This document shows positions 14,661 through 61,600 of a DNA stretch of 64,000 bases, in pieces. This DNA is from an uncultured virus (IMG/VR IMGVR_UViG_3300032226_000438). Taxonomy: Duplodnaviria; Heunggongvirae; Uroviricota; Caudoviricetes; Crassvirales. Below the pieces are notes generated by a model that made no database searches, had not been told where the DNA came from, and saw only the letters and a list, made by a program, of their open reading frames with translations. Each line of letters starts with the position of its first letter. Positions within the stretch are counted from its first letter, which is position 1. A program made the translations under genes and the position numbers. The stretch lies in the IMG/VR virus record IMGVR_UViG_3300032226_000438. One strand, given 5' to 3'.

Positions 14661-14840
14661 ATGAATGACTTAATTGAAACATTAGAATACTTATCACTCT
14701 TAATTAAAATAGAATTAAGTGATGATGTACAAGTAGATTTATCTTATTATGAATTACTAACTAAAGTTAGAAATCAAATAGATGAGTTGATATTAGTTGT
14801 TATTACACAAGAATTAAATAACATCAGAGAGTCTATTTAG
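14661..14840 (+). CDS. Early hypothetical acidic protein
   Basis: MNDLIETLE... downstream of motif copy 3. Confidence 0.5.
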   Translation: MNDLIETLEYLSLLIKIELSDDVQVDLSYYELLTKVRNQIDELILVVITQELNNIRESI

Positions 14841-14967
14841 ACTCTCTACTTTTATACTTCGTATAAAAACTATAACTAATGTTAATGTAATATAAAAATA
14901 GATGCACTTATATAAAGGATATTCCCTTTGGATATAGTTTTTTTTGTTTCTTTTAATACTTTTCAAG

Positions 14968-15441
14968 ATGGCTTTAGGCACTAAATCCACTACAAAGACT
15001 CCAGCTAACGCTGTTGAGTCTGTGAAAAACATCAATAATATCATCCATTTCATGGCTGAGATTACTGATATTAGAGAATGCGCTAATCCTGAACTACGAG
15101 TAGTTGAGGATGATATCGCATACTATAAATCCACTTCAGGTTCACTCTACCTATGGGCGGAGTGTACTCGCGAAGATGGTTTAAGTCAATCAGCCATGTT
15201 GTTCCAAAATGTCTTGTTTGACAAGAATGGAAAACAACGTTACGAAGTTGGAAGCGTAGTTCCAATCGATGCCGTTGTTACGAGCAATTCTGCCAAAGAA
15301 GATTCTCTTCTATGGAAGATTGCTCCTCCAGGCGTTGCACCCAAAGTATCATTAGACAAGTTGTCTGCTGATACTAAATGGGTTAACGCAGTTCGTAGTG
15401 GTAACATAAAGCCTTATGTACCTCCTACTAAACTGAAATAG
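14968..15441 (+). CDS. Early hypothetical protein
   Basis: MALGTK... downstream of motif copy 4; higher GC than surroundings. Confidence 0.6.
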   Translation: MALGTKSTTKTPANAVESVKNINNIIHFMAEITDIRECANPELRVVEDDIAYYKSTSGSLYLWAECTREDGLSQSAMLFQNVLFDKNGKQRYEVGSVVPIDAVVTSNSAKEDSLLWKIAPPGVAPKVSLDKLSADTKWVNAVRSGNIKPYVPPTKLK

Positions 15442-15449
15442 GAAAAATT

Positions 15450-15482
15450 AAGAGAGTTAGCAATAACTCTCTTTCTTTTTTT
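15450..15482 (+). terminator. Intrinsic terminator
   Basis: AAGAGAGTT/AACTCTCTT hairpin plus T run. Confidence 0.7.
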
Positions 15483-15789
15483 ATTCCTATTTAGTTTACT
15501 AAACAACTGGGAACTAATGCACGGAGCTAATGCCCGAGTTATGCGTTAAACTTTCTACTTTTACTTTTGTTGTTACACTTTTTACTTGTTTTGTTAATTA
15601 CTGGCGTCACAATGTGTCACTGTTAGTAGTTAAAATGTTGATAGTGAATGAGTTGAGTGTGTGAATGGGAGTGATTACTCCAACAACACCCATTATCGAC
15701 TCATTTCACTATTGATATCATTTGTTACTCTTTAATAATACTATTTAGTGTTAATGTAAAATAATAGTTAAAACCAAAATAATTATATT

Positions 15790-16155
15790 ATGAAAAACTT
15801 ATTATGGTGTGCAAATCACCAACCATTACAAGAGCAACTTGATTCATTAAATGAAATGGGTAATCTTATCTTTCTAAAAGATATAGCTCCATTTACAATG
15901 GAAATGATATCAAACACTCCATCTAACAGAGATGAGTGTAAAGATTTAGCTGATACTATTTCAATGTTAGCAGAAAACCATAACGCTAAGATTGTACAGT
16001 TAGGAGGTAGTCCATTATTCTTAGTAATGGCATCACCAATCATTGGTAGTGGTAGAATGATATTTGCTGACTCTGATAGAGTTAGTGAGGATATACTACA
16101 ACCAGATGGTTCAGTAAAAAAGATTTCAACTTTTAGACATAAAGGTTGGTCTTAG
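15790..16155 (+). CDS. Csx20-like putative ring nuclease, paralog 1
   Basis: NHQPLQEQ...ISNTP...IVQLGG...FADSDRVSEDILQPDGSVKKISTFRHKGW. Confidence 0.5.
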   Translation: MKNLLWCANHQPLQEQLDSLNEMGNLIFLKDIAPFTMEMISNTPSNRDECKDLADTISMLAENHNAKIVQLGGSPLFLVMASPIIGSGRMIFADSDRVSEDILQPDGSVKKISTFRHKGWS

Positions 16156-16227
16156 AATATGACAGTAGAGTGATAGTAATATCACTACTACGATTGTTAA
16201 TTAATAACATGATATGAAAACATTTAA

Positions 16228-16480
16228 GACAGAGCTGAAAACTCTATAAACTTATTCTAAGTGATTTAGAAATCACGTATGTCCTGACTTTAACTACAGA
16301 GTAATTAACTGTAGAAATGGACTCTAAATTTAATGTATCATTCTAGTTTCACAAGGACTAGCAGTTGTAATTATACAGTAGGCAGAAGTTATCTGTTATC
16401 TAATACTAGTTTATAGATAAATTAATTACAACTGAATACAGAGTGGATAAAAAACCTCATTTGAGGACACTACTTTCTTT
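16228..16480 (+). ncRNA. Cluster of predicted RNA structures (candidate ncRNA)
   Basis: Successive stems, including an 11-bp CAGTTGTAATT/AATTACAACTG closing a three-way junction (16362-16434). Confidence 0.45.
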
Positions 16481-16660
16481 TACTTATGTTTAATTAGAGT
16501 AATTAAAATCATTTAGTTCAAAGCCTAGAGTATTATGTCAACCATGGATAAGATATAATATGCTCAAGACGCAACTTACTTAAATAACTCTTGAATTAAA
16601 CCGAACGAATTGTAAAAGTTTTATAGTGTATCTTTATAACTAAACCAAAACTATTATATT

Positions 16661-16987
16661 ATGACAAAAGTATTTGCAGCAGAGAAATATACTTATGGTT
16701 CTGATTTTATGAGAGAGTTTGATACTCTTGATGAACTCAAACGAGGTATAGTAGAACACGAGTTGTTTTTCGAAATGTATGACGAGGTAACTCGTGAAAC
16801 AAATTATACTGATGATATGTACACAGAGGAGTTATTCAAAGAACACTCTAAAGGTTACAAACTATTCGAGATTGACTTACATGATGATGAAAAACTCTGT
16901 TGGAGTGAGTACGATGGACAATCTTATTTCTCTATTGAAAAGAAAAAACCACAAATTCTATCTACTATGAAACAAGTAGGTAAATAA
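16661..16987 (+). CDS. Early hypothetical acidic protein
   Basis: ORF with AACCAAAA leader. Confidence 0.6.
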   Translation: MTKVFAAEKYTYGSDFMREFDTLDELKRGIVEHELFFEMYDEVTRETNYTDDMYTEELFKEHSKGYKLFEIDLHDDEKLCWSEYDGQSYFSIEKKKPQILSTMKQVGK

Positions 16988-17132
16988 AATATTCTATAAC
17001 ACAATAATCTGAACAGTTAACATTTGGGTTATTGTTGTTATATTATGCAGTCCAAATTTAACTGATTATTAGACTATAAACATTAGAATCAGTCCTTAGA
17101 GTGGTGGTTCATAGAAATATGATAAACTCTAT

Positions 17133-17177
17133 AAAAAACTTAATAACATTCCAAGTTGTTGAGGACACCAGTTTCTT
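17133..17177 (+). repeat. Dispersed RNA-like motif, copy 2
   Basis: AAAAAACTTAATAAC-loop-GTTGTTGAGGACACCAGTTTCTT; other copies at 16449-16479 and 17642-17686. Confidence 0.65.
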
Positions 17178-17272
17178 TGATTAAAATATGTGTTAGATAA
17201 CTAATGACGTTTAGTCTCTACATAAAGGTTATCAATCAAAGTTTTAGGTGTAAAACACAAACCAAAATCAAT

Positions 17273-17638
17273 ATGAGAAATTTCTTATGGTGTTCTCCTC
17301 ACACCCCAACAGAGGAACAATTTAACTCCTTAAACAATCAACATCCTTTGTTGCTACTCAAGGATATAAATCCTGAGTTAGCAGAAAGATTGCTAAACAC
17401 TCCTAGAGATAGGAGGGATTGTCAACGATTAGCAGATGAAATTTCAGCTACTGCTGAACAGTTTGACGCTATGATTGTCCAACTAGGTGGTTCACCGTTA
17501 TTTCTAGTGTTGGCTGGACCAATCATAGGAAGTGGTAGAATGATATTTGCTGAATCAGAAAGAATCAGTGAGGATATACCTCAAGCTGATGGTTCAGTTA
17601 AAAAGATATCCACCTTTAGACATAAGGGTTGGATATAA
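17273..17638 (+). CDS. Csx20-like putative ring nuclease, paralog 2
   Basis: Start MRNFLWC at 17273 gives 121 aa, the same length as paralog 1; near-identical C-terminal half. Confidence 0.5.
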   Translation: MRNFLWCSPHTPTEEQFNSLNNQHPLLLLKDINPELAERLLNTPRDRRDCQRLADEISATAEQFDAMIVQLGGSPLFLVLAGPIIGSGRMIFAESERISEDIPQADGSVKKISTFRHKGWI

Positions 17639-17641
17639 ATC

Positions 17642-17686
17642 AAAAAACTCAATAACTAATAAAGTTGTTGAAGACATTAGTTTCTT
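17642..17686 (+). repeat. Dispersed RNA-like motif, copy 3
   Basis: AAAAAACTCAATAAC-loop-GTTGTTGAAGACATTAGTTTCTT. Confidence 0.65.
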
Positions 17687-17767
17687 ACATACAGTCCAGA
17701 TAACTTCATGACTACGCTGTAAGTTTTAGATGTCTTTTTCTATGATTATTAACCAAACCTATTATAT

Positions 17768-18001
17768 ATGACAAAAGAAAAGATTTACTGGAAAATGCGT
17801 AATGGTAATCTTATATCTGTAGATGATATGGATGAAGAACACGCAAAGAATGTACTAAAGATAGTTTTAAAGAATAGACAGACTGTTATTAAACAGATTG
17901 TTAAATCTAAAAGGCAATCTTTTATGTTAGGAGATATAGCTGCTGAATTTAACAGTAGTCAATATGATGACAATGAATATGATGAATCATTAATGCACTA
18001 A
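17768..18001 (+). CDS. Hypothetical protein
   Basis: YWKMRNGNLISVDDMDEEHAKN motif. Confidence 0.6.
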   Translation: MTKEKIYWKMRNGNLISVDDMDEEHAKNVLKIVLKNRQTVIKQIVKSKRQSFMLGDIAAEFNSSQYDDNEYDESLMH

Positions 18002-18003
18002 TT

Positions 18004-18168
18004 ATGGAAGAAGTTACAACTTATGTGTTAGTCTCATGGCCTGAAAGTCAAATACTAATGGAATACGATTGGTTCGATGAATGTATCTTAATGAATGATG
18101 AAAATCATTTAGATAATGTAGGTTCATCAGCTTATTTTGTTCCATTTGAAAGATGGAAAGAGCTATGA
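18004..18168 (+). CDS. 54-aa hypothetical protein (YVLVSWPESQILME...GSSAYFVP)
   Basis: Manual translation; ATGA overlap with next gene. Confidence 0.6.
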   Translation: MEEVTTYVLVSWPESQILMEYDWFDECILMNDENHLDNVGSSAYFVPFERWKEL

Positions 18169-18974
18169 AGATTAAGGTAATTGACTACGTACCACATAAT
18201 AAGAGTTTACCTCTTATTATTGGTATATTAACAGTTACTGCATTTATTCTTGGAGTTAAGTATTCTAATGCTGGAATGTACTATGAGCAATCAATAGTAC
18301 CAGAGACAAAGTTCTTCACTATATTTCAGACTAAAGTTGATACAGTTTATGTAGAAAAGAAAGTTACAGAAGCAGTTATCAATGAAGATGCGTATGGTGA
18401 TAGAAACTACGGTCACAGTATTAGAAGACTTAACTTGAAAGAATTAAGGCAGAAACTAACGAACATGGGATTCAGACACTTAAACAATATTGATTTGTTT
18501 AAGATGCGTCGTATATGGTTGTTATACAACTATGATGATATGTTAATGAATGTCCATGTACTTACTGATTTTCCTGTTAGTATGATTTACAGTTTCTTTA
18601 TTATAGAAGCTACTACTACAGGAATAGAAACAGACTTATGGAGATTACATGCTAATGCTGGAGGTGTTAAAGCACTCAAGGGTCATAGTACTGTAACTTA
18701 TAGTACAAGAGAAGTTATTGGTGGAAGAAACAAAAGAATAAGAGCTAAATTCTTTAGTAGTAAAAGTACTAAAGATGGTATTGCATTATGGTCTGGAGTA
18801 TTAAACTCTGATAGATACAAGAAATGCAAGACTTATGATATTAAACCACCACAACTATACAAGAAAATCTGTAAGTGTATCTACAAGAGTGGATATCACA
18901 CAGATACAGATTACGAATTTAGAGCTTCACTAATGTCAGAATATTGGGACTTAAAGAAACATTTACCTGAATGA
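18165..18974 (+). CDS. Membrane-anchored glucosaminidase/FlgJ-like (GH73-type) peptidoglycan hydrolase
   Basis: N-terminal TM helix; FIIEA, NAGGVK, TREV, RY and GYHTD motifs. Confidence 0.65.
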   Translation: MKIKVIDYVPHNKSLPLIIGILTVTAFILGVKYSNAGMYYEQSIVPETKFFTIFQTKVDTVYVEKKVTEAVINEDAYGDRNYGHSIRRLNLKELRQKLTNMGFRHLNNIDLFKMRRIWLLYNYDDMLMNVHVLTDFPVSMIYSFFIIEATTTGIETDLWRLHANAGGVKALKGHSTVTYSTREVIGGRNKRIRAKFFSSKSTKDGIALWSGVLNSDRYKKCKTYDIKPPQLYKKICKCIYKSGYHTDTDYEFRASLMSEYWDLKKHLPE

Positions 18975-19429
18975 AATCAGAAATGTTTAAAGTAAATGAA
19001 GTATCATTGCATTATAAGTTAAAGCATGATACTACAGATTATCCAATAATCAATAACAGTAAAACAGCAGCTGATATATTCTATGAATCATGGGATAAAT
19101 ATACTATAGGATTAGAAGAACAATCTAAAGTATTATATCTCAATAGAAGAAATCAAGTAATAGGATTATATCATTTTAGTACAGGTAATATAAATGGTAC
19201 AATAATGTGTAATAAAAAGATATTTGCATGTGGATTAAAGATTCTTGCATCAAGTATTATTATTGCACATAATCATCCATCTGGCAATAGGGGTATATCT
19301 AAATCTGATTTAGATGTTACTAAAGTGATTAAAGCTACTGGAGAAGCAATAGATATGAGATTAAACGACCATATAATTATATTACCTAATGGAAGTTATG
19401 TATCTTTAGCAGACGAAAACTTGTTATGA
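18971..19429 (+). CDS. radC: RadC-like JAB domain protein
   Basis: E..KVLYLNRRN, IIAHNHPSG...S.SD, DHIII. Confidence 0.85.
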   Translation: MKSEMFKVNEVSLHYKLKHDTTDYPIINNSKTAADIFYESWDKYTIGLEEQSKVLYLNRRNQVIGLYHFSTGNINGTIMCNKKIFACGLKILASSIIIAHNHPSGNRGISKSDLDVTKVIKATGEAIDMRLNDHIIILPNGSYVSLADENLL

Positions 19430-19727: not shown

Positions 19728-19844
19728 GTTTTTAATGTATAAAACTTGACATTTTCACAGACGGAAATTGATTTCCCTCTGTCAAAAATAGTTAAGTATT
19801 AACTTTACTTTTATTATATGAAAGTCAAGTTATATCTTTATAAT

Positions 19845-20005
19845 AGCAAGGTGGCGGAATGTTTATAATGTGAGTTAAATCATTAAGGTGTTTAATTCCT
19901 GTTATAAATTGGTAGACGCTTAAGGGTTGGGTGGATGTTGCAACGTAAAACAGAGAAAATAACCTTATAAAATCCACCGTGTGGGTTCGAATCCCGCCCT
20001 TGTTA
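19845..20005 (+). ncRNA. tRNA-like element 1 (D-loop insertion, no canonical anticodon arm)
   Basis: Acceptor AGCAAGG/CCTTGTT, TGGCGGAA...TGGTAGACGC D-arm, GTGGG-TTCGAAT-CCCGC T-arm. Confidence 0.75.
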
Positions 20006-20083
20006 CCCTACAAAAGGCAGACGTTAAACTAGAGTGAAATAGATGGTGGTAATATTTCTAAAGTCTGTATTGTACCACTAAAA

Positions 20084-20200
20084 AGCAAGGTGGCGGAAAA
20101 AAGGTAGATTAGGAGAAATCTATTCCTGATGGTAGACGCTATACTTAAGCAGTTGAAGCTAGGTAATTCAACATTGCAGGTTCGAATCCTGCCCTTGCTA
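20084..20200 (+). ncRNA. tRNA-like element 2 (D-loop insertion, masked anticodon loop)
   Basis: Acceptor AGCAAGG/CCTTGCT, same D-arm, GCAGG-TTCGAAT-CCTGC T-arm. Confidence 0.75.
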
Positions 20201-20216
20201 CGCAAAAATTAAGGTT

Positions 20217-20474
20217 ATGAATATTAAACAATTAAAAGAATCAATCGCAAATCTTCCTGATGAAATGGAAGTGGTTTTACAAAAAGATAGTGAGGGTAAC
20301 GGGTATAGTCCACTTAAAGGTGTTGACTCAGATGCTGTTTACATTCCTTATAATACATGGTCAGGGGATGTTTATTCAATTGGATGGACTTCAGATGAAG
20401 CTGATATGTCAGATAAAGAATGGCAGGAAATAAAGTCAAAACCAAGAACTTTGATTTTATATCCTGTTAATTAA
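20217..20474 (+). CDS. Hypothetical phage protein
   Basis: L..LPDEMEVVLQKDSEGNGYSPL motif. Confidence 0.65.
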   Translation: MNIKQLKESIANLPDEMEVVLQKDSEGNGYSPLKGVDSDAVYIPYNTWSGDVYSIGWTSDEADMSDKEWQEIKSKPRTLILYPVN

Positions 20475-20483
20475 TATTAACCT

Positions 20484-20585
20484 AGTCAGGTGGCGGAATG
20501 GTAGACGCACATCCTAAATACATTCAGATGGTGGAACTGAATTAATTGGGTGTACCACTTGCAGGTTCAAATCCTGTTCTGACTA
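20484..20585 (+). ncRNA. tRNA-like element 3 (extended anticodon arm)
   Basis: Acceptor AGTCAGG/TCTGACT, TGGCGGAATGGTAGACGC, GCAGG-TTCAAAT-CCTGT. Confidence 0.75.
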
Positions 20586-20647
20586 CGCAAAAAACATAAA
20601 ATGGAGTTTCCTTACCTCGTAAGAGATGGGTTTTAGAAATCTTAATT

Positions 20648-20769
20648 GGTCAAGTAGCTCAGTGGGTTAGAGCAACTGGTGACAACGGTTCGAGTCCGTT
20701 CCATACGAAAGTATGAGGTGTGTAGGGTTGCAAGCGAGTGTGTCATAGGTTCAAATCCTATCTTGACCT
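20648..20769 (+). ncRNA. tRNA-like element 4 (two T-arms)
   Basis: Acceptor GGTCAAG/CTTGACC, GCTC/GAGC D-stem, internal AACGG-TTCGAGT-CCGTT, CATAC-GAAA-GTATG, terminal ATAGG-TTCAAAT-CCTAT. Confidence 0.75.
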
Positions 20770-20800
20770 CTATTATTATTAATCATTAAACAATATTAAG

Positions 20801-31078: not shown

Positions 31079-31648
31079 ATGAAAATCTTAATCACTTCCA
31101 CATTGTCTAACAATGTAACCATTCACGAATTTAACGGAAAAAAGATTTCTGACTTGCGTGAGTATTTGATAGAAAATAACTTATTTGAAGAAGGTATGGC
31201 TATCAATGGTAATACTGATTTGAGCAACCCTAACAATGACATACCTGATAACTTGAAGGTTGTTACTGTTACTCCAGCTAAATCTAGTGCTGCTAAGATT
31301 GACTTTTCAAATATGTCATACAATGATTTGAAGAGTATAGCTAAAGAATACAGAGTTGAAGCTGTAGAGAATGATGATGAAACACTACTGGATATTGTTC
31401 ATAGCAAATACATGAGTATTCCTAAGAATGATTTGATTGTAATGCTTACTAATGCTTTTGAATACTTAAATCCTGCTACTGCTACATCGTTAGTATCTGA
31501 TGACCAAGTATCTAAATTGAGTGAAGTCATTGATAAGTTAGAAGAAAGAGTGTTTGAGATAGAATACAGTTTACAATTACTAACTGATGTGAATAAGTTG
31601 AGATTCTTAAACAGATTGAAGAAAGATTATCCACATTTGGTGAAGTAA
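31079..31648 (+). CDS. Ubiquitin-like (beta-grasp) N-terminal domain plus helical/coiled-coil C-terminus
   Basis: About 70-aa beta-beta-alpha-beta N-terminus ending VTVTPAKSSA; first gene of E2/JAB/E1 cluster. Confidence 0.45.
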   Translation: MKILITSTLSNNVTIHEFNGKKISDLREYLIENNLFEEGMAINGNTDLSNPNNDIPDNLKVVTVTPAKSSAAKIDFSNMSYNDLKSIAKEYRVEAVENDDETLLDIVHSKYMSIPKNDLIVMLTNAFEYLNPATATSLVSDDQVSKLSEVIDKLEERVFEIEYSLQLLTDVNKLRFLNRLKKDYPHLVK

Positions 31649-31661
31649 TTATTTAAGGATG

Positions 31662-31690
31662 GGGAGTAGTGTAAAAAGCTACTCCCTTTT
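31662..31690 (+). terminator. Intrinsic terminator/attenuator after Ubl gene
   Basis: GGGAGTAG/CTACTCCC plus TTTT. Confidence 0.7.
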
Positions 31691-31702
31691 AAACTATTAA
31701 TC

Positions 31703-32572
31703 ATGATTACTAAAGATGAAGTAATATTTCATAAAGATTTTGAGATGTTAGAGGAATACTTAGAATCTATGTATCCTAATAGATATGAATTTAAAGAAAA
31801 TGAATTACTTATCTATTATCCTGAAGTAACTATCAAGAATCTTGTTGGTCAGACGTATAATATGTACAATATTTTTATTCATTATGGGTATAATACTAAC
31901 ATTTTTGCTTTTACTAAGTTGCATTATACAGTATTAGATTATATGAATCAAACACATAATACTTTTACACATCCACATCAATCCAGAGGTACAATACCAT
32001 TTAAGTCACAAAGCTATTGTTATGGTAAACTTAACATACAATATGCTTTTAATGATATTAAAAGTGTTATTGCAGTTATCAATGTTGTTGACTTTTGGTT
32101 ACATAATGAAAACTCATCAGATTGTTATACACCTATTGCTTCACTATTTCATAATGAAGGTGAAGATTCATTAGCAAGTCTTTCATTCAATGAAAATCTA
32201 AGAAGTGAATTAGAAGAGTATATGGTTGTAGATAAAACTATTAAGAGTACTATATTCGGTGATTTGGTTAACATTGAATGGAATACTGATGAAGCTATTA
32301 TAGGTATGTTAAGAGATACTGTACTGGAAAAGAGATTAAACTGCGCACAAAACTTAAGAAACATTCTTGATACTTATCAAAACGCTACTGTAAATTTTAA
32401 AGACAAAGATTATTACATTACTGTAGAAGGTTTTAATGCTGAACGTATTAAAACTAATACTAAATCAAACATAAATGAAAACGTTGCACAACAACTCAAG
32501 CAAATGGCAACAGCCATCACAAACACAAGCACTTTCTTACCAAACCTTGAACGGTATTACTTTAATTGTTAA
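31703..32572 (+). CDS. Prokaryotic E2-like protein
   Basis: FTHPH followed by YCYG (HP..C arrangement of E2 folds); gene context. Confidence 0.5.
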   Translation: MITKDEVIFHKDFEMLEEYLESMYPNRYEFKENELLIYYPEVTIKNLVGQTYNMYNIFIHYGYNTNIFAFTKLHYTVLDYMNQTHNTFTHPHQSRGTIPFKSQSYCYGKLNIQYAFNDIKSVIAVINVVDFWLHNENSSDCYTPIASLFHNEGEDSLASLSFNENLRSELEEYMVVDKTIKSTIFGDLVNIEWNTDEAIIGMLRDTVLEKRLNCAQNLRNILDTYQNATVNFKDKDYYITVEGFNAERIKTNTKSNINENVAQQLKQMATAITNTSTFLPNLERYYFNC

Positions 32573-33473
32573 TGATGATACTATTAAGAAAATAATAGCA
32601 GCTAATGAAGCTACTGGTAAGAAAGCAGAATGGATTGGTATATTATTCTACAAGAAGATTGATAACAAAACACTAGAAACTGTAGATATATGTTACATGG
32701 GTAAAGGTCCAGAAAATAGTATGGTTGCTAATATTGACTATACTGAATTTCCTGAATTATCTAGTGTATTATCCAACTATGTTATGAATAATGCTGAAAA
32801 ACTTATAGATTGTTATCAAGGATTAATTCATAGTCATATTGATATGGCTACTAGTCCATCAGGAACAGATTTATCAGAACTAATGGCTAATAACTCTAAC
32901 TACAATGGTACTTATCTAAGTGTTATCTGTAATCATAGATTAGAATTTACATCATTATTAAGTGTAGAAGAAGAACAACCAAAGAAAGTTAACAACTACA
33001 AATGGTTTGGTGAAATAGTTACTAGAGAAATAGAAGCTGAAAAGAATATTAATATCTATGCTATTAAGACTCAATTCACTAATATTGAATATCCTGATAT
33101 TACTGAAGCATTAGAAGTAGTAAATAAAGCTAGAGCATTTAAGTTAAAAGCTAATTCTCAAACTTCACTATGGAATAATAAATCATGGAATACTAAGAGT
33201 TGGAATAATAGGTCATGGGATGATGGTAATGTTAGTTATTTAGATGAGTTAAATAACTATTTTGGATTTGATAAAACTACTTATGCTGAAAGAATTAAAA
33301 TTCTTAATGAATACAGTAAGAAAGGATTTAGTGTAGATGCTTTTATTGAATCTATTGACCCATTTAATGCTAATGAAGTACTTAGAGAGTTGAATAGATT
33401 CTCACATACACAGTTTTATAAAGACCTGAAATCTTATATTGACATTTTTAAATTAAGTTACAATGAGCTTTGA
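32475..33473 (+). CDS. JAB/MPN metalloprotease
   Basis: EWIGILFY...GLIHSHIDMATSPSGTD (E, HxH, S..D). Confidence 0.8.
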   Translation: MKTLHNNSSKWQQPSQTQALSYQTLNGITLIVNDDTIKKIIAANEATGKKAEWIGILFYKKIDNKTLETVDICYMGKGPENSMVANIDYTEFPELSSVLSNYVMNNAEKLIDCYQGLIHSHIDMATSPSGTDLSELMANNSNYNGTYLSVICNHRLEFTSLLSVEEEQPKKVNNYKWFGEIVTREIEAEKNINIYAIKTQFTNIEYPDITEALEVVNKARAFKLKANSQTSLWNNKSWNTKSWNNRSWDDGNVSYLDELNNYFGFDKTTYAERIKILNEYSKKGFSVDAFIESIDPFNANEVLRELNRFSHTQFYKDLKSYIDIFKLSYNEL

Positions 33474-34116
33474 TAAAAGATATAAATCAGCTATATGGGC
33501 TGATTATAAATTACCTATTACTATAGTAGGTCTCGGTGGTGTAGGTAAAGGTGTTGCTGTAAATCTTGCATTAAATGGACATAGTTTAGAAGTCTATGAT
33601 GGAGATACAGTAGAATTACACAACTGCATACCACAAGGTTACTATCCTACACAAATAGGAATGAAGAAAACTTTAGCTTTAAAGCAAGAGTTAGATTTCT
33701 ATCCTAGTAATGTAATTTATAATGGTATATATTGGGAAGACCATTGTGATTTAAATAGTAATGTAATTGCTTGTCCTGATAAAATGAATGTTAGAGTTGA
33801 TATGTTTAATGAATGGTTTCATAGAGAGCAGATTAATGATAATTTCTTCATAGACATTAGAATGTTAGCAGAATACTTTGAGATTTATTTCATTACTAGC
33901 GACAAACGTCATGAACTAGAGAAAGAGTATAGAGCTAAAGGTTTATCTGATGAAGAACCAGCACCAGTAAATTGTACATTTACACAAACCAGATATGTAG
34001 CTAATATGTGTCATGGTAAAGTAGTAGAATTAATCAACAAACATATTGTTAACGTAAAAACTAATATTACAGTATATGACATTCCACTATATACAAGGTA
34101 TGATGCCAACATCTAA
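33463..34116 (+). CDS. ThiF/E1-like adenylyltransferase
   Basis: IVGLGGVG, YDGDTVELHN, K, CPD, DIRM, PVNC. Confidence 0.85.
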   Translation: MSFDKRYKSAIWADYKLPITIVGLGGVGKGVAVNLALNGHSLEVYDGDTVELHNCIPQGYYPTQIGMKKTLALKQELDFYPSNVIYNGIYWEDHCDLNSNVIACPDKMNVRVDMFNEWFHREQINDNFFIDIRMLAEYFEIYFITSDKRHELEKEYRAKGLSDEEPAPVNCTFTQTRYVANMCHGKVVELINKHIVNVKTNITVYDIPLYTRYDANI

Positions 34117-52629: not shown

Positions 52630-55600
52630 TTATTGTTTACATTTGTTAAAATAAGTATCGTTTAAAGTTCTATAAGTTTTTCCAGTATTTAAAGTATTGA
52701 TATATACTTCAATTTTTCCTTCATCATCTATAACATATATAACATTATTTGATTTAATACGGATGTAACCAAATTTATCTTGTTCATTAGCTTCTATAGA
52801 TATATCAGTTTTTTTCGGTTTATAATCAGATTTTCTTATAGATACATTTGAGTTATCACTAGTATTAATAGCATATATTAAATCTACACCTTCAGAATAA
52901 GGTATAAATTTCTCACCATACATTTCAAACTGTTTAGTCATATCTATTACAACTTCTTTAGGTTTTTCACTCTTTGGCGGTTTAGTTGTAGTTGGTGGTG
53001 TAGTTGTAGTACTTTCTTTTGGAGGAGTATATTTCTTTAATGAATATACAAATACATTTCCTTCAAATATAGCTTTTAATAATTGTTGAGGAATTCTACC
53101 TTTATAACCTAATGATTTAGTTAATTCAGGTAGTGTATATGATTTATTACCTACAGTAAACTTTTTGTTATCATATTTAATACCTGTATAAATATGAGTT
53201 AAGTCAACAATAGTATTTTTAGAATCCATTAATTTATATTTACCATTTGTTTTTTTATTAGTTGTTTTTTTAGTAATATATAAACTATTAAATCCTTTTT
53301 TAGGTAAAGTTCCTTTAACATCTACTTTAGAATCTTTTGTTGATGGAGTAGAAGGTTTTTTATCAGATACAGTAAGTTCTACTTTCTCTTGAGTTTCAGA
53401 TTTAATCTTATCAACAATATCAACAAAACTACCTTGTTCATTTATATTAGAACCTTTACCTTCAACTATTAACATAAGATGTTTAGCTCTACTTGATGCT
53501 GTGTAATGTGTTTTATCTCTTAGTAATAAACTATCTTTCTTATCTTTAACTGAAGTTTTATTTTTATTTATAATATCTAATATATTATCAGTTTTTTCTT
53601 TATTGTAAATAGCAACATCAGTAGTCATACCTTGAGATTTATGCACAGTAATAGCATAACCATGTTTTAAATTAGCAACCTGTGATGCTTTACTAACAAG
53701 TTCAAAGAATTTAGCTATTTCTACTTTATCACTACTATGTTGATTTCCAAAATCAAACTTTAAATTATCTTTATATTTATTACGATCTAAAACAGTAATA
53801 GGTTTTGTTACATCTTGTTTCCTAATTATTGCTTCTTTAAAGTTTTCAAATCTTTTTCTTTCTGATAAATTTAATATATTAACATCAGATTCCATAGTGA
53901 TATTATTATATTTATATCTTACAGTATAAGTCTTTCCTTTAAAACTTATTGATTTATTATTTAAATCTGTAAGATTTAAAGTATAATCTTCTTTAACTTT
54001 TACTATAACACCTCTAGTTCCATTATCTATTACTAAGGGTTCACCAGTTTCTTCATTAATATCTGTAACTTCATAACCATTATAGAATGTAACAAAATCA
54101 TTCTCAACAAAATCTTCTACATTTTCACCAAATATTTTTTCACGAATTTTTGCATTAAAATCATCAACATCTTTATTTGCATAAGTTATATATTGAACAT
54201 AATTTACATTCTTTTCAGCAACAGCTTTTTTATATAACTCTGCAATATTATCAATAGAATCATTAAGATTTATAGTAGCTATACCACCACTAGAAGTTAA
54301 TATATTTGGTATATCTATGTAATTTGCAGGTTTAGATTGTTCAGTAGCATGTTCCCAAATAGGGTCAAGATAATCTAGTATAGGAGAACCTTTCTTTTGT
54401 CTTTGAGGTGTAGTTAAATGTAATATATTTTCTGGTTTAATTTTACTTTTAAGGTCAAAAGGAATACTTATTGGAGGAAGTTGTCCATGGTCTCCAGCAT
54501 ATATTACTAACACTTTACCATCAGCATCGTTTTCAATTCTATTAAAATCTTTTTCAGAAAGCATAGACATTTCATCTATAATAAGTACTGTTCTATCTTT
54601 TCTATATTTCATTATTTTAGAAGACTTACCTGTTTGTTGTGTACCAAATTCTGTTTTTACTGAATTAAGTAAAGATGCTACTGAATGATAATTTATTTCA
54701 ATATTTTCTACTTTAAGTTTCTTTGCACTTAATGATTCTGCTAATTGATTCTTTGCAGCATTAGCTAAAGCTGAACCAACTATATTTAATTTTTCTCCTG
54801 GTTTTAAATTATTTACAATATGTTCAAGTGCTGAAGCTAACATATATGTTTTACCAGTTCCAGCTCTACCTAATAGTAATAATGATTCACTATTTTTACT
54901 ATCAAATTGACTTATTATTTTTTTAGCAGCATCTAATTGTGCTCCTTTTAAATCTGCTAATGAGTCTTTTGTTTTAGTTGTATCTTCTTTAATAGTATTT
55001 CTTAGTATGTCAAATACTTCAACTAAAGCAGTTGGGTGCATACCTTGACCTCTAGCTTCTGATTTACCAGCATATAATAATGTAGCTCCATCAAGTTTTC
55101 CTTGATTGATTTGATTAATTATCCATTCTCTTTGTTCAGGATTTACATTATTATGTTTAGTACCAAGTAACCAATCTTTGTAAGCTATAACAGCATCTGC
55201 TATAGTGTCAACTTTTATAGTATTACCATAACCAGCTTCACTAAATGGATTACCAAAATGTTCATTAGGAAGAGCTGCTGATGTTCTCATAGTATTTATA
55301 CCTTCATTAGTATAAACAGGTCTTGATTCTAAATCACCTTTCCATTCTCTACTTGTATCAATTTTAGGTGATACAACAGGTTTTTTATCTTGTTTTTCAG
55401 TTTGTTTAATTTTTATTCTAGGTGTATCTCCAGTATGATATATAGTAAATTTAGCACCTATTTCTTGTAAGTAATCTATAAATTGACTATCTACTCCAGG
55501 CATATCTCCTACTATAAATTCTCCTCCTGATTTATTAATTATATCTATATTAAGTTTAGTACTTTCATTTAATGGTTTGTTAGCTAATTCTTTATTACGA

Positions 55601-58600
55601 GCTAACATAATTATATCTTTTTGATTTTTTTGGTAAGTAGCTATTGAATAATAATCTGAAGAATCATTTTTACTATTACCTATACCATAAGATGAACCAT
55701 ATTTTTTAAGAGATTTTTTTCTTAATATATCATAAGATGTATTAGTAGATGTTAATCCATTAATATCAATAATTTCTCCAATAAAACCATCAGCAATGTT
55801 TCTCATCGCTTTATCTTTACCATCACCTTCTGGAGTTCCTTTACCAGTATTATCAAATCCTCCTTTATAACCTTGAAAACCTGATACTATAATAGGATTT
55901 AATTCACTACCTAATTCATTTACATCTTCTTCTTCAAATGCTTTATTATCATCTACTATAATTACATTGTTATAATCATCCATAACATCATTATATATAT
56001 TATAATATAATGGAGATACTTCAATGTCACCACTTCTTTTACCAAGTAATGTTATTTCTTTAGTATTTTCTTCTCTATCAACACTAACATTATTATTATT
56101 AAAAGTATTTTTAGGAAAGTTATACTTATCTAATATCATGTTTAATACGTTAACACCTGTTGCAGGATTGTTAACTAATTCAACTATTTTATTATTTAAT
56201 AACTTTGAATAGTTTTTTAATACATCAGTATAAAATTCAACTGGTATTAAGTGATTAAAACTATCTCTAGTAGTATCAAATCCTGTAGTGCGTAATGAAT
56301 ATACAGCTAGTAATTCACCAACAAATTTAGCATCATCATTATTACTCTTTAATAAGTTTCTCCAATCTTGAGTAATTCTATCTTGTTGGTCTTTGTCTTT
56401 AAAATCAACACTAAGAACTTGTAATTTTAAACCTTCACCTACATAACTTTTATCTATTTGTAAAGCATTAATAAATAAATTGTCTGCGTATTTTGATTTT
56501 ATTTTTAAGAATGCTTCTTCATTTAAAGATTTTAATTGACTATCCATTTTATTAAAATAATCACTTTGACTTTCTACAGTAGCTTTATAATATAAAGCAT
56601 TGTATAACTTACCAAGAATCTTATCATCAATCTTTTTAATAAAGTTTCTCGATTCAATAAGTGTTCTAAATGAAGTTAGTTCTTTTAAGTCTGAGTTAAA
56701 AAACTCTGGAAGGCTTAATAATTTATTTACTATATCATTCTGTTCATTAATAAACATGTTAAATCTTGTAGTAAACATTTTCTCATCTCCAAAATGATTT
56801 TTAATTGATTCTACATCAAAGTATTTTACTTCTGGATTTTTAACATAATTATTATAGTTTACAATATCTATATAATTCTCAAAGTAAGTAGGTTTACCAC
56901 CACGATTACCTCTTTGTATATATGTTACAATATCATTAAATTCTTTACCTAATTGTTCGAGAATATAATAATTACGATATATTATTTTTTCTATTTCAAG
57001 AAGTTCTGCACCAGCTTTTACATCATTTATTTCAATGTTTTTACGATTTTTAATATACTTTATAATACTATTCATATCAATATCAATAGTAACATTGTTA
57101 CCTTTGTCAACATCAGCAGCTATAAGTTTCTTTTGTTCTGGAGTTAACATTGATTTACTAAGCATATTAGTAAATGCTTTATTAAAATATATTACATCTT
57201 CTAATGGATAACCTAAATGTAATGCTGCCATTGCTATATTAGCATTACTAGGATTTAATCCAAAATAACTAATCAATGGATTCTTACCATTATCTACAAC
57301 TGCTGATAGTATTGTACTAAAAGCTCTTACTATAGTATTTTCATTATTAAAATCATATATACTTGATAAATCAACTTTAATATTTTCTAACTTTCCTGCA
57401 TGCTTAATTGTTAATGTATCTAATAATTTAATTCCTGATTGTTGTATAATAGCTCTAGCAGCATTATGATTAGCAGCAATACCAGTCATATCTTTACCAA
57501 CATTCATAGCCATTACAGTATCAATCCATAATGAAGGGTCTATAAATGTTCTAGCATTTCCATTTAATATAGACTTTTTATCATTATCAGTTTTTTTATC
57601 GAATATATCTACAGTAACATTCTTATCAATAAATTCTTGATTCTCATCAAGCATATCATAGAATCTCATGTTTAATACAGCATCTTCTATAACTTTAAAA
57701 CCTCCAGGAATAAGTTGTGATTTTAATGTTGTAGGATGTGATAACACAGCTCTCATTATATCTAACTTAGTATTATCAGATTTTAATGAATTATTATACA
57801 TATTATAAGCTATCATAGCATTATTGTATGCTGTACTACCTTCTCTTAATACATTAGTATATTCATTATTATATTTATCTACTATACTATTATATTCTTT
57901 TAATATTTCTTCAGGATAATTATTTCTATCATTACCATATTGTGATGTAATATTATTTATTAACTGATTTTTTGCTTTACTTTTAGATTTAAAATATACT
58001 TCATTAATATAATCTTCGTACTTTAATTCTGTTGATTTAAAGAATCCAAACATTTTATCTATGTCAAAATCTAATCCTGATAATGCAGTAACCATTGGTG
58101 GCATAATAATAGCACTATCATCATTAGGTAAGAATCCTACAATCTTAACTTTAAACATAGAATATTTATCTTCAGTAGGAATACGATATAGTAACCCTTC
58201 TAGTAATTCAGGATATGTGCTTCTTAAAGCATCCATATCTACAGTCTTTGATACTTTATCTACAAATTCATATATCTTTTTATCATGAATAGGTGCGATA
58301 ATTTCAAAATGGTCTATACCTAATGCTGGAGTTTCAATACCATTTTTATCAACATTCCATACTATTCTAGGTTTATTTTTAAAACCATAAGATGATGCGT
58401 TAGCAGCTTTAAAACCTTTAACAAACTTTCTTACTGTAACATTATTTTTAAATATAGCATTGGTTTTAGGTTGTACTCTATTAGTTACAAATGGATGTGC
58501 TAATGGTAAACTTGTAATTAAATTACCATCTTCATCATAAGTAAATTCTAATGCTTTTTGCATATTAATAGTATCTTCAGACATTTCTTCTTGAAGTACT

Positions 58601-61600
58601 TTAACAAACTTTTCTACATTAAAATCTTTACCATCACCATATTTTTCTTTTAATTCTTTAAGAGATATATTAACATCTTCAACTAGTATCTTATTATACA
58701 TAGTTATGATTGCATCTTTAGTAGTTACTTTACCAGCTATATTAAATGTAGCATCATCAGGAATATCAGCCATTATCAGTTTCATTAGCTGAGTACCATA
58801 AATACTTTCTTTACTAAAGTGTCCTTTAGGTGTTTCATTTTGTTTCTTCCAGAATCTAAATGGTACTGTAATAGTATGACCTTTCATATTACTATCAACT
58901 GGAGCATACATATTATTTCTATCATCTGTGATATCAGTACTTGGGTCTTCTGTTTTATCTGAAATAGGTAATCCTACTTTTACAGCAGTATTAAATACTA
59001 CTAAATCTGAAATCCTTTTATTTTCAACATATTTTACAGTATGTGTAGTATCATTAAATTCGTAACCAAATTTATTTTGTAATATGTTTCTATAAAAAGC
59101 ATTGTAATTAGGATTATCTATAAATTCACCTTTTTCATTTTTAAGTTTTTGTAAACCATAATAAGGAGTTATCAGCATTTCTGAATCCTTTATTTGAAAT
59201 GGTTCATTATAAAAGCTCTTATTATCCTCTCTTTTAATACCACTACCATTATAAAAATAAAATGGTTTTATAGTTGTAAATCTTGAATCTGTACTTACTT
59301 TATTATTAGCTACATTATAACCCACAATTGAATTTCCAATCATAAGTTCATCCATTATAAGTTGGTCTGCATCAGTCCAATCTCTTAAACCTACCATTCT
59401 TTGTCTATAAGCAATAGGGTCTATATATGCTTGAGCATCAGTTTCTGAAGTATTATCAAATTGTGTTAATACATCTTGTTTTCTAATACTTAATAATGCT
59501 TGTTCAATTTCTCTATACTGTGGGTCTTGTGTAAAGAAATCATCTACATCATTAAGTATAGTAATTCTCATTTCTGTATCATCCTTTAATATAACTTTAT
59601 CAGCTGTATTCTTAGGATTAGTATATGATGCAGTCATATCCATATCTATACCTGGAGATATGTTTTGTTTAGCTCTTTTAAATACTTCTTCAATACGAGG
59701 ATAGTATGATGGGTCATTAATAGTTAATAGTGTAATGTTTACATAAGATGCAGTAAATCTTTTAAGAAAATTATTTATTTCTTTTTTAGTATGAAGTATA
59801 TTATCTGCTTTAATTTTATTTAAAAAATCTGTTCTTTCTTTAGGAGTTAACTTAAGACCTGGTTTTATAAACGGTTTAGCATATCCTTGTATTTTTGATT
59901 TTAATAAACCTTCATTATCTATTATATCTAAACTCGTAAGATATTTAATAAACTCATTAGAACTTTCTTCAAAGTATTTATCAAATGCTTTCTTTACATT
60001 AAACTCATTAAATTCAAGTTTATCTTCTTTAAGAATTTTATCTATAGCTTTAAAGATTACATATTCTGAACCATTTTTTCTATAACTTTTAACGTCTCTA
60101 TCTCTATTTCCTATAGATTCAATTCTATCTTTTTCAAATAACATTAAGTTATATAACTCTTTATCTATATCAATATTTCTACCAATAGGTACAACATTAT
60201 TTACAAACACCATATTACCTGAATCTCCTGGTACTGGTACTGGATAACTATTTTCTTTGTGCATTGATAACAACATTTCAGCTGCTAACTTTTTATCTAA
60301 CTTTCCAATAGTTGTTCCTTTATCATTATATTGGTCATCATAACCAATAACTTGTATTACTTCAAATCTATCATCTCTATTAAGTACAGGAAGTTTTTTA
60401 AATAAAGGGTCTTTTCTTAGTTTATCAAAATGTTCTTCTGTATTATTTTGTACATAACCAATAAAGTTACCAGTAGTATCTTGATACTGCATAGTCTTTT
60501 CTACAGTCATGTGTACAGCATTGCTTGACTTTGGTATATACTTTACTAATTCACGAATAAGTTCTTTAGTTGTAAATCTATATTTTTCATTATCAAGACC
60601 TTTTTCTCTTGTATCAAAAGTATAAGTATTTTTACCATAATTATATCTTTTATAAAAATCATCATCACTTAAAGAATTATATATTTCTAAATTCTTATCA
60701 TATCTAAGTAGTATTTGAGTAAGTATAGTTTCAAATTCTTTTATTTTACTTAAATCAATCTTTTCTTTATTACTTAACATTAAAGCATTTACTATATCTT
60801 TATACTTATATTCAGTCTTAGTTTTAATACCAGCATTAAGCATTGTAGATATAATATTCTCTGCTGATTGTCTATTTGATAATACAGGATATATACTTTG
60901 TTTTTTATCTTTTATAACAGTTTTATAAGTAACTCTAATTTTATTACCAATAGCTACATATAGTTGTCCATATAATTCATCAGCATTTTCACTATTATCA
61001 ATATATGATTTAAGTCTTTTTATATACTCTATAGACTTAGAATATAATCCCATATTATATTTTAAATCATCAACATTTTTAGAGTTAACTAACTTATCTA
61101 CAGTCATAGCATAAGCTGTATTAAGTTTATAATTAAGATTAATATTTAAACCTAAATTATCTTTTTCATCACTAATAATAGACTGTAATAATATTTTAGT
61201 ATTCTTATTTAATGTAGTAGTAGGAAACTGGAATGTCTTAACTATTGACCATGCTTCTTTAGAATCTTTTTCTTCTTCTACTATTGAAATATCTTCTGAA
61301 TCTTCATGAGAATATGATTCATTTTCTATATCAACATTGTATCCATAGACTTTTAGTCCTTTAAGAATAGTAGAATAAAGTTTTCCAGAATCAGGTTTTA
61401 CTTTGGTGTTTTTTACTAACACAAACTCGTTCTCTTCAGTAAGTTCTATAGCTTGTATATCAGGTCTTAATGATTTTACAAGTTTTACTACAGTAGTAAG
61501 ATTAGCAGCATTAGTTTTTTCTAATAACAATAATACTAATTCATTTAAAAAGAAATTCTTTTCTGTTGAACCTTTAATAATAGATATTAATTTATTAGGG

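Follow-up and report, generated by a model that had tools for sequence, protein, structure and literature searches.

Csx20 was reportedly defined by Makarova et al. in 2020. In the bioRxiv version of Hoikkala et al. (PMC12409355), one CRISPR-associated Csx20 degrades cyclic tetra-adenylate (cA4) in vitro, as well as cA3 at ten-fold more enzyme, and the protein is modelled as a homodimer with a binding site across both subunits. The 2025 survey, as far as its available text goes, counts Csx20 in four of 28,114 isolated phage genomes (five in the preprint version) and treats AcrIII-1 as the main viral ring nuclease (PMC12409355). Homologues of csx20 in Aca14-regulated operons have been proposed to be phage-co-opted counter-defence (PMC13551039). 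AcrIII-2 is a SAVED protein of 230 aa whose subunits stack, with a composite site between them; in the accessible part of its report, anti-CRISPR activity is not shown in vivo, and such assays are said to be no faithful guide to the native setting in some cases (PMC12751052). In Csx15, a histidine in the loop between strand 1 and helix 1 (Motif-I) is required for cleavage and occupies the position of the AcrIII-2 catalytic His and of a catalytic Ser in Crn1. Csx15 stacks head-to-tail, acts slowly and more as a sponge, and is described in the available sections as unseen in the phages of the published survey (PMC13148439). A literature search with most subscription journals outside its scope returned no experimental test of a phage Csx20, and in the portions of the Csx20 literature available to it no catalytic residue was found stated. 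Phage-borne Csx20 as counter-defence is already in print, and the published phage sequences may include members of the clade described below; the present locus carries two alleles in one genome.

The DNA analysed here (the window) is a 64,000-nt stretch of an uncultured virus. It encodes a portal protein, a large terminase, a DNA polymerase, helicases and a primase, and from gene content and order we read it as part of a crAss-like phage with a Bacteroidota host. Two plus-strand genes, A (15790–16155) and B (17273–17638), each encode a Csx20-like protein of 121 aa, with B belonging to another allele lineage than A. In the list of open reading frames gene B is extended to 144 aa by an upstream ATG (17204); in the alignment, A and the relatives agree with a start at 17273. 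Both genes lie approximately 2 kb past a strand switch, among short plus-strand genes. crAss-like phages keep their early genes in this position after the strand switch. The pair is located outside any CRISPR locus, in a phage genome, and the neighbouring genes gave no match to a cas family in Pfam or PHROGs.

The two homologous 121-aa genes noticed in a sequence-only reading of this DNA proved to be real: 78 of 120 residues are identical (65%) in a gapless alignment (BLASTP, E 2e-58). That reading also called the C-halves near-identical. The C-halves are indeed more alike than the N-halves (84–85% against 48%), but the wording was too strong. The genes are not adjacent. Their starts are 1,483 nt apart, and between them are a 108-aa plus-strand gene (16661–16987) and about 790 nt of non-coding DNA. 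The 108-aa gene, of unassigned function and without a Pfam or PHROG family, behaves as a movable cassette: its homologue is found upstream of the csx20-like gene in four related loci (L018, L020, L026, L027) and downstream of it in four others (L019, L021, L022, L054). Positions 14800–18400 are covered evenly, at a depth of 24.7 and with zero differences, by a single 36,002-nt contig of a public run, which may be the source of the window itself and hence does not count as an independent check. Because this one contig spans both genes without differences, an assembly join is unlikely to account for the pair. In an RNA run, short contigs covered the non-coding stretches and none covered genes A and B; since the strains in that run may differ in these genes, the missing contigs are uninformative about expression. 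In all eight pairs tested, dN was well under dS. These data confirm that A and B are intact, conserved genes in a variable early region.

Upstream of gene A, at 15717–15768 on the plus strand, is an AT-rich conserved element with 19 matches in the window and the 23 related loci searched, on the coding strand in every case, and it is possibly an early promoter. A scan of the region for sigma-70 promoters remained at chance level (36 hits vs 30.7). At the start of the plus-strand block, a 27-nt sequence occurs four times between 14046 and 14932, at distances of 210–339 nt and near strong terminator hairpins; these repeats, too, are possibly early promoters. Further along the early region, a gene at 18971–19429 encodes a RadC-like JAB domain (Pfam PF04002, E 5.5e-29) and is kept in relatives. 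A tRNA-like cluster at 19840–20770 contains two Rfam tRNA matches (102 and 122 nt) missed by ARAGORN as well as further T-loop repeats. Elsewhere in the window, 31079–34116 is a run of four genes, of which only the last has a PHROG match, to an unnamed family; judged by eye, we take the four to resemble a cassette of ubiquitin-like, E2, JAB and ThiF/E1 genes. A minus-strand gene at 52630–63495 encodes a protein of 3,621 aa with a Dda-like helicase region.

The relationship of A and B to Csx20 was examined with family profiles. For both proteins the NCBIfam Csx20 model NF040559 was the best match, with 21.7 bits for A (E 2.1e-4, residues 8–118) and 22.4 bits for B (E 1.2e-4, nearly full length). 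The curated cut-off of this model is 70 bits, so that by this test both are non-canonical Csx20 proteins. A word-index search yielded 70 homologues of the pair, and 68 of these, including one 97% identical to A, carry a precomputed assignment to PF27247 (MJ1673). PHROGs, and a Pfam copy without the PF27247 model, gave no family for either gene. With a profile built from 55 close sequences, 1,042 clusters at 50% identity were collected at E up to 0.001. NF040559 was scanned over 147 of the 150 listed representatives of these clusters: 127 matched at E up to 1e-3, 19 had no match of any kind and one had, among the matches listed, other families only. None of the 147 reached the 70-bit cut-off, the best scoring 58.3. 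Profile–profile comparison with hhalign joined the wide family profile to the csx20 gene, annotated as such in RefSeq, of a Persicobacter type III locus (98.1%, E 1.2e-13), and the close profile to a profile of 19 mostly CRISPR-locus homologues (98.3%, E 1.4e-14). Searching PDB sequences with gene B or the wide alignment gave nothing below E 0.19. The proposed homology to Csx20 is therefore upheld by NF040559, by both hhalign comparisons and by the conserved residues described below, and A and B are, judging from their sequences, clear if distant homologues within a broad Csx20/MJ1673 family. From this homology, the suggested cyclic oligoadenylate (cOA) ring nuclease activity is probable.

Other proposed connections fared differently. 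The view that the genes are unrelated to AcrIII-1 agrees with the lack of a DUF1874 Pfam match at E up to 0.5 for either one. The link to Csx15 found no backing: no Csx15 row appeared for A or B at E up to 1, in a library that may lack a Csx15 model. Like AcrIII-1 (DUF1874/Crn2) and AcrIII-2 (viral SAVED), the two proteins would destroy cA4 on behalf of a virus and silence type III effectors; they belong to a different family, with no Pfam match above noise for A or B.

Several related arrangements were noted in passing. In one homologue (P0202) a Csx20-like domain follows an RNA polymerase alpha C-terminal-like domain within a fusion protein, and in another (P0199) two Csx20-like domains stand in tandem in one chain, a layout that fits a dimer. 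A second CRISPR-associated Csx20-like group from Bacteroidota (L075–L093), under the NCBIfam cut-off, starts with N-x-x-N-H, and at L085 a Csx20-like match lies inside a TM1812/Csx1 protein of 571 aa. Cultured phages carry other Csx20-like genes, hypothetical or unannotated: L010, L097, the GenBank Fusobacterium phages JD-Fnp1, 4, 6 and 7, and Rhodothermus phage RM378, the last being a possible native phage–host pair for a Csx20-like gene.

To place the family in cellular genomes, 401 genomes from the phylum of a Cytophagales (Bacteroidota) genome were scanned, one genome with a strong Csx20 being the chosen centre. NF040559 matched in 21 of them, exceeding its cut-off in two, and the wide family profile matched only these same two, one of which is the chosen centre. 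Around such loci, 19 of 30 scanned neighbouring proteins belonged to CRISPR families (TM1812/Csx1, Csm6, Cas1, Cmr6, Csm5 and others). The Cas10 palm model matched in 19 of the 21 genomes with a Csx20-like gene and in 71 of the 401 overall; as it also fires in an E. coli control, some of these matches may be proteins other than Cas10. SMODS matches were present in two of the 21 and in 41 of the 401. A narrower alignment led to five loci in bacterial genomes, two being canonical Csx20 with CRISPR-type surroundings and three lying in prophage-like or mobile-element-like DNA; none of the five belongs to the exact clade of A and B.

These counts bear on the idea that the viral clade was retuned to cA3, cA6 or a CBASS cyclic nucleotide, so that its target would not, or not only, be the cA4 of type III CRISPR. 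The 41 genomes with SMODS in the likely host phylum would offer such a target, and the reported activity of canonical Csx20 on cA3 at ten-fold more enzyme (PMC12409355) points in the same direction. However, the cellular homologues track Cas10 rather than SMODS. We consider this alternative unlikely, and the residues and the fold of the proteins, on which it also draws, are described next.

In a tree of 60 rows (midpoint root for drawing only), A and B fall within a clade of 37 rows with support 98/90, most of them without genomic context, and none of the 20 CRISPR-locus proteins is placed in it. Atlas clusters nearest to gene A are 64–100% viral among members with a record, with scores under 0.9. 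A and B thus appear to fall in a large clade, sister to Csx20, whose members are mostly viral, the viral share being a lead only. Residues were compared among five canonical Csx20 proteins, 15 further homologues with CRISPR neighbours, 12 proteins of viruses or mobile elements and 26 representatives. His10, Gln16 and Gly73 are invariant across these four groups and Arg97 and Phe115 nearly so; all five residues are present in A, in B and in all 20 CRISPR-locus proteins. His117 is common to A, B and the five canonical Csx20 proteins, while the 15 broader CRISPR-neighbour homologues have Phe. The loop at Gly73 reads GGSP in the window proteins and QGD or MGE in the CRISPR-locus proteins, and the C-terminus differs as well. 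Separation of the viral clade and its altered Gly73 loop speak for retuning to another cyclic nucleotide; against this, the invariant residues are the same as those of the CRISPR-locus proteins.

Between A and B themselves, 19 of 21 examined positions that are conserved or adjacent to the site are the same. Residues 8–9, just ahead of the candidate catalytic His10, are Ala-Asn in A and Ser-Pro in B, and both states occur in single-copy relatives.

The predicted model of gene A has a pLDDT of 97 and places His10 between strand 1 and helix 1. In a model of a canonical Csx20, used as control, strands and helices follow one another in almost the same order, and the two models have a common top viral structure match (TM 0.71 for A and 0.66 for the control). 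In the PDB fold search, neither of them reached a Z of 8. For gene A, racemase domains came first (up to 7.1), and CARF/SAVED rows among the 50 best matches listed had Z values of 4.4–5.4. Many CARF proteins were returned for the control, including Cdn1 (Z 7.2) and the Crn1 protein Sso2081 (Z 6.4), which is within the best 50 listed for the control and outside those listed for A. Foldseek against the PDB gave no match at E up to 0.001. The structural check of the earlier proposal thus came out divided, in that the order of elements is like that of canonical Csx20, but the scores against known CARF and SAVED structures stayed low. A CARF-like (derived Rossmann) fold is compatible with the model of A, not decisively and more weakly than for the control. 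The best CARF/SAVED-type structures for A are SAVED domains of CBASS proteins (Cap4, Z 5.4; Cap5, Z 5.2), which might be taken in favour of a CBASS nucleotide as target; yet these scores are tied with those of unrelated folds.

With canonical Csx20 (NF040559; PF27247), A and B share a length of about 120–130 aa, a full-length profile match, the His/Gln/Gly/Arg/Phe set and, in the models, a nearly identical order of elements. They differ from it in being encoded by a phage outside a CRISPR locus, in reaching 22 instead of 70 bits, in forming part of a separate clade and in carrying the motifs W-x-x-x-H, Q-L-G-G-S-P and H-K-G-W. Published phage-borne csx20 genes (PMC12409355, PMC13551039), as far as the available text describes them, are likewise Csx20 homologues on a virus or mobile element with a proposed role in counter-defence; A and B are distinct from these in residing in a crAss-like phage with two alleles per genome. 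Csx15, which is CARF-like, resembles A in being a small protein with a His in the loop between strand 1 and helix 1, in the case of A in the predicted model, but no Csx15 row was returned for A or B.

Concerning the origin of the two copies, the phylogeny argues against the duplication in place that had been assumed. L026 and L027 each carry a single gene, to which B is 93% identical and with which it lies in a nine-row clade (support 100/100), while A is 83–84% identical to the genes of L001, L013, L014 and L015. Forcing A and B to be sisters cost 75.6 log-likelihood units (p-AU 0.0002); the pair had been named by the earlier observation, although the tree had been seen before the test. Two ways of explaining the similar C-halves by copying were rejected: a recent duplication, as dS is about 1.1–1.2 in both halves, and gene conversion of the C-half, as dS is 1.09 there and 1.24 in the N-half. 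At nonsynonymous sites the halves diverge, with a dN of 0.095 in the C-half vs 0.557 in the N-half, and the similarity of the C-halves is thus due to purifying selection rather than recent copying. A variable N-half is a feature of the whole family. Among 20 relatives, mean identity is 63% in the N-half and 85% in the C-half, and N-half identity ranges from 44 to 100%, so that the 48% between A and B is near the low end.

The surroundings of the genes in relatives agree with two separate sources. Colinearity of L026 and L027 with the window starts at about 16410–16450 and runs through gene B; A is missing from both, a different ORF occupying its slot in L026. In L001 colinearity covers A and the flank downstream of it, and B is missing. 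One copy is present in nine of nine relatives that span the region with both anchor genes, drawn from 23 close loci with some near-duplicates. No second full-length copy was found in 60 loci; three of them have a broken one, fused to another ORF. Among 80 loci picked via a conserved neighbouring gene, many with short flanks, two had a csx20-like gene, which is in line with a clade-restricted distribution. Sequence comparison thus places A and B in two old allele lineages that are not sisters, and the two-copy state is most likely a recombinant of these lineages, a by-product of the mosaic early region.

The same data weigh on two explanations in which the presence of both copies matters. If A and B were a specialised pair, as heterodimer or with two cOA specificities, one would point to two intact copies, N-halves that are only 48% identical, the exchange at residues 8–9 beside His10 and the well-supported separate branch of B. 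But A-type and B-type genes each occur as the sole copy in relatives, the N-half varies family-wide, the site-adjacent positions are almost all shared and no second full-length copy exists in the 60 loci, three of which have a broken one. The earlier suggestion of a heterodimer, or of a specificity split driven by the N-halves, is accordingly not borne out, and we regard it as the least probable of the alternatives. The second explanation is that the proteins bind cOA tightly and cleave it slowly, acting as a sponge, in which case gene dose would matter and a second copy would be of use. For Csx15, good sponging of cA4 goes with very slow cleavage (PMC13148439), and the window has kept two intact copies. 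Conservation of His10 and Arg97 and the single copy in all nine spanning relatives speak against this, and the Csx15 paper, in the part available, deems sponging unlikely in view of the large cOA output of type III systems (PMC13148439). Sponging is improbable in our view, and recombination of two lineages of ring nucleases is the reading we continue with.

The non-coding DNA around the two genes contains putative RNA elements. Twister and hammerhead ribozymes occur near phage genes and may process polycistronic messages (review, PMC6765202). Between A and B, at 16329–16446 on the plus strand, is a twister-like element with a long variable extra helix (E2), and directly upstream of gene B, at 17133–17259 on the same strand, is a circularly permuted twister-like element (E1). 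For E2, 30 of 60 distinct copies were aligned, with 99.9% of cells paired, and both partners change in eight of 24 pairs, including one pseudoknot pair. For E1, 33 of 77 copies (32 distinct) were aligned with 98.4% paired; three of 20 pairs have changed at both positions, with covariation in the helix beside UAA and an invariant pseudoknot. The copies of both elements were gathered by patterns that fix part of the sequence, and those aligned are mostly the shorter ones. An invariant A-rich leader of E1 could pair with a U-rich internal loop. If the twister rule applies, as we assume, E2 would be cut at 16331/16332. In E1 the corresponding site would be 17251/17252, which is 21 nt upstream of the gene B ATG.

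Set against the Rfam twister consensus (RF03160, RF03154, RF02684), the conserved letters of both elements align, with UAA and GAGGG-like strands, a UCCCAAG-like loop pairing with the latter and a covarying helix by UAA. In contrast to twister, E2 has the extra helix and E1 is permuted without a clear P4 stem, and Rfam has no match at either one. Neither at gathering score nor at E up to 10 did the Rfam twister models match the window, and none matched above cut-off in sets of two and five related virus records; sub-threshold canonical twisters and RAGATH-12 were detected near E1 in related phages. From their sequences and covariation, E1 and E2 may be regarded as putative twister-like ribozymes uncatalogued in Rfam.

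Degenerate copies of E1 are present at 16449–16631 (plus strand), upstream of the 108-aa gene, where the loop and the UAA core are missing (repeat family D9), and at 17642–17734 (plus strand), upstream of a 77-aa gene at 17768, where the copy is 80% identical to 17133–17177. Stretches adjoining the elements, 16156–16328 and 16988–17132, are further hairpin-rich non-coding DNA. Both intergenic stretches between A and B fold better than shuffled sequences (z about −2.1), and two other runs match all 160 nt of 16981–17140 without a difference, whereas gene B is about 95% identical in them. The repeated E1 copies may supply homology for shuffling of the early region.

E2 recurs in at least 121 stretches of viral contigs and E1 in 96. 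In 13 of 28 related loci the 3′ core of E1 stops 17–24 nt short of the csx20-like start, and among the loci L219–L314 E1 lies 11–40 nt before a start codon in 36 of 51 copies with an ORF within 150 nt. Since many other genes also follow it, E1 is a general element of the early region. This matters for a further alternative, in which the viral clade no longer takes part in immune signalling and its substrate is a different nucleotide or an RNA, such as the ends left by the neighbouring self-cleaving RNAs. The twister-like RNA directly upstream in 13 of 28 loci would suit such a role, and 1,042 clusters at 50% identity make a family that is very large for an anti-CRISPR. However, the RNA elements also precede many unrelated early genes, a csx20-like gene being present in one of 96 and one of 121 of the RNA-pattern loci (with short flanks), and operons linked to anti-CRISPR regulators are reported to contain csx20 homologues (PMC13551039). 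A substrate outside immune signalling therefore seems very unlikely.

Taken as a whole, the explanation we favour, with moderate confidence, is that A and B are interchangeable viral ring nucleases of the Csx20 clade directed against type III CRISPR and brought together by recombination; a role against cA4 is likely on the strength of the homology. As a member of the predominantly viral clade that is sister to Csx20 (Pfam MJ1673), each protein would be made early, form a homodimer of small Rossmann-like subunits and bind cyclic tetra-adenylate. The ring would be opened by His10 in the loop after the first strand, aided by Arg97 and the C-terminal hairpin, and the lowered cA4 signal would reduce activation of Csx1- or Can2-type effectors of the type III CRISPR system of the host. 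Recombination in the early region would have joined a left part with allele A to a right part with allele B, and the two copies would give redundancy or dose and no new function. A wider reading, which makes the clade a major viral ring nuclease class with a range beyond cA4 that includes CBASS-type signals, and in which the 5′ end of the message is freed by the permuted twister-like ribozyme, strikes us as doubtful.

The two-copy arrangement in itself adds little, although two small natural alleles are easy test material. Of more consequence is the size of the clade, whose 1,042 clusters at 50% identity contrast with the four of 28,114 phage genomes given in the available text of the 2025 survey (PMC12409355). 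Should viral Csx20 be active, it would count as a widespread way for uncultured phages to counter type III systems.
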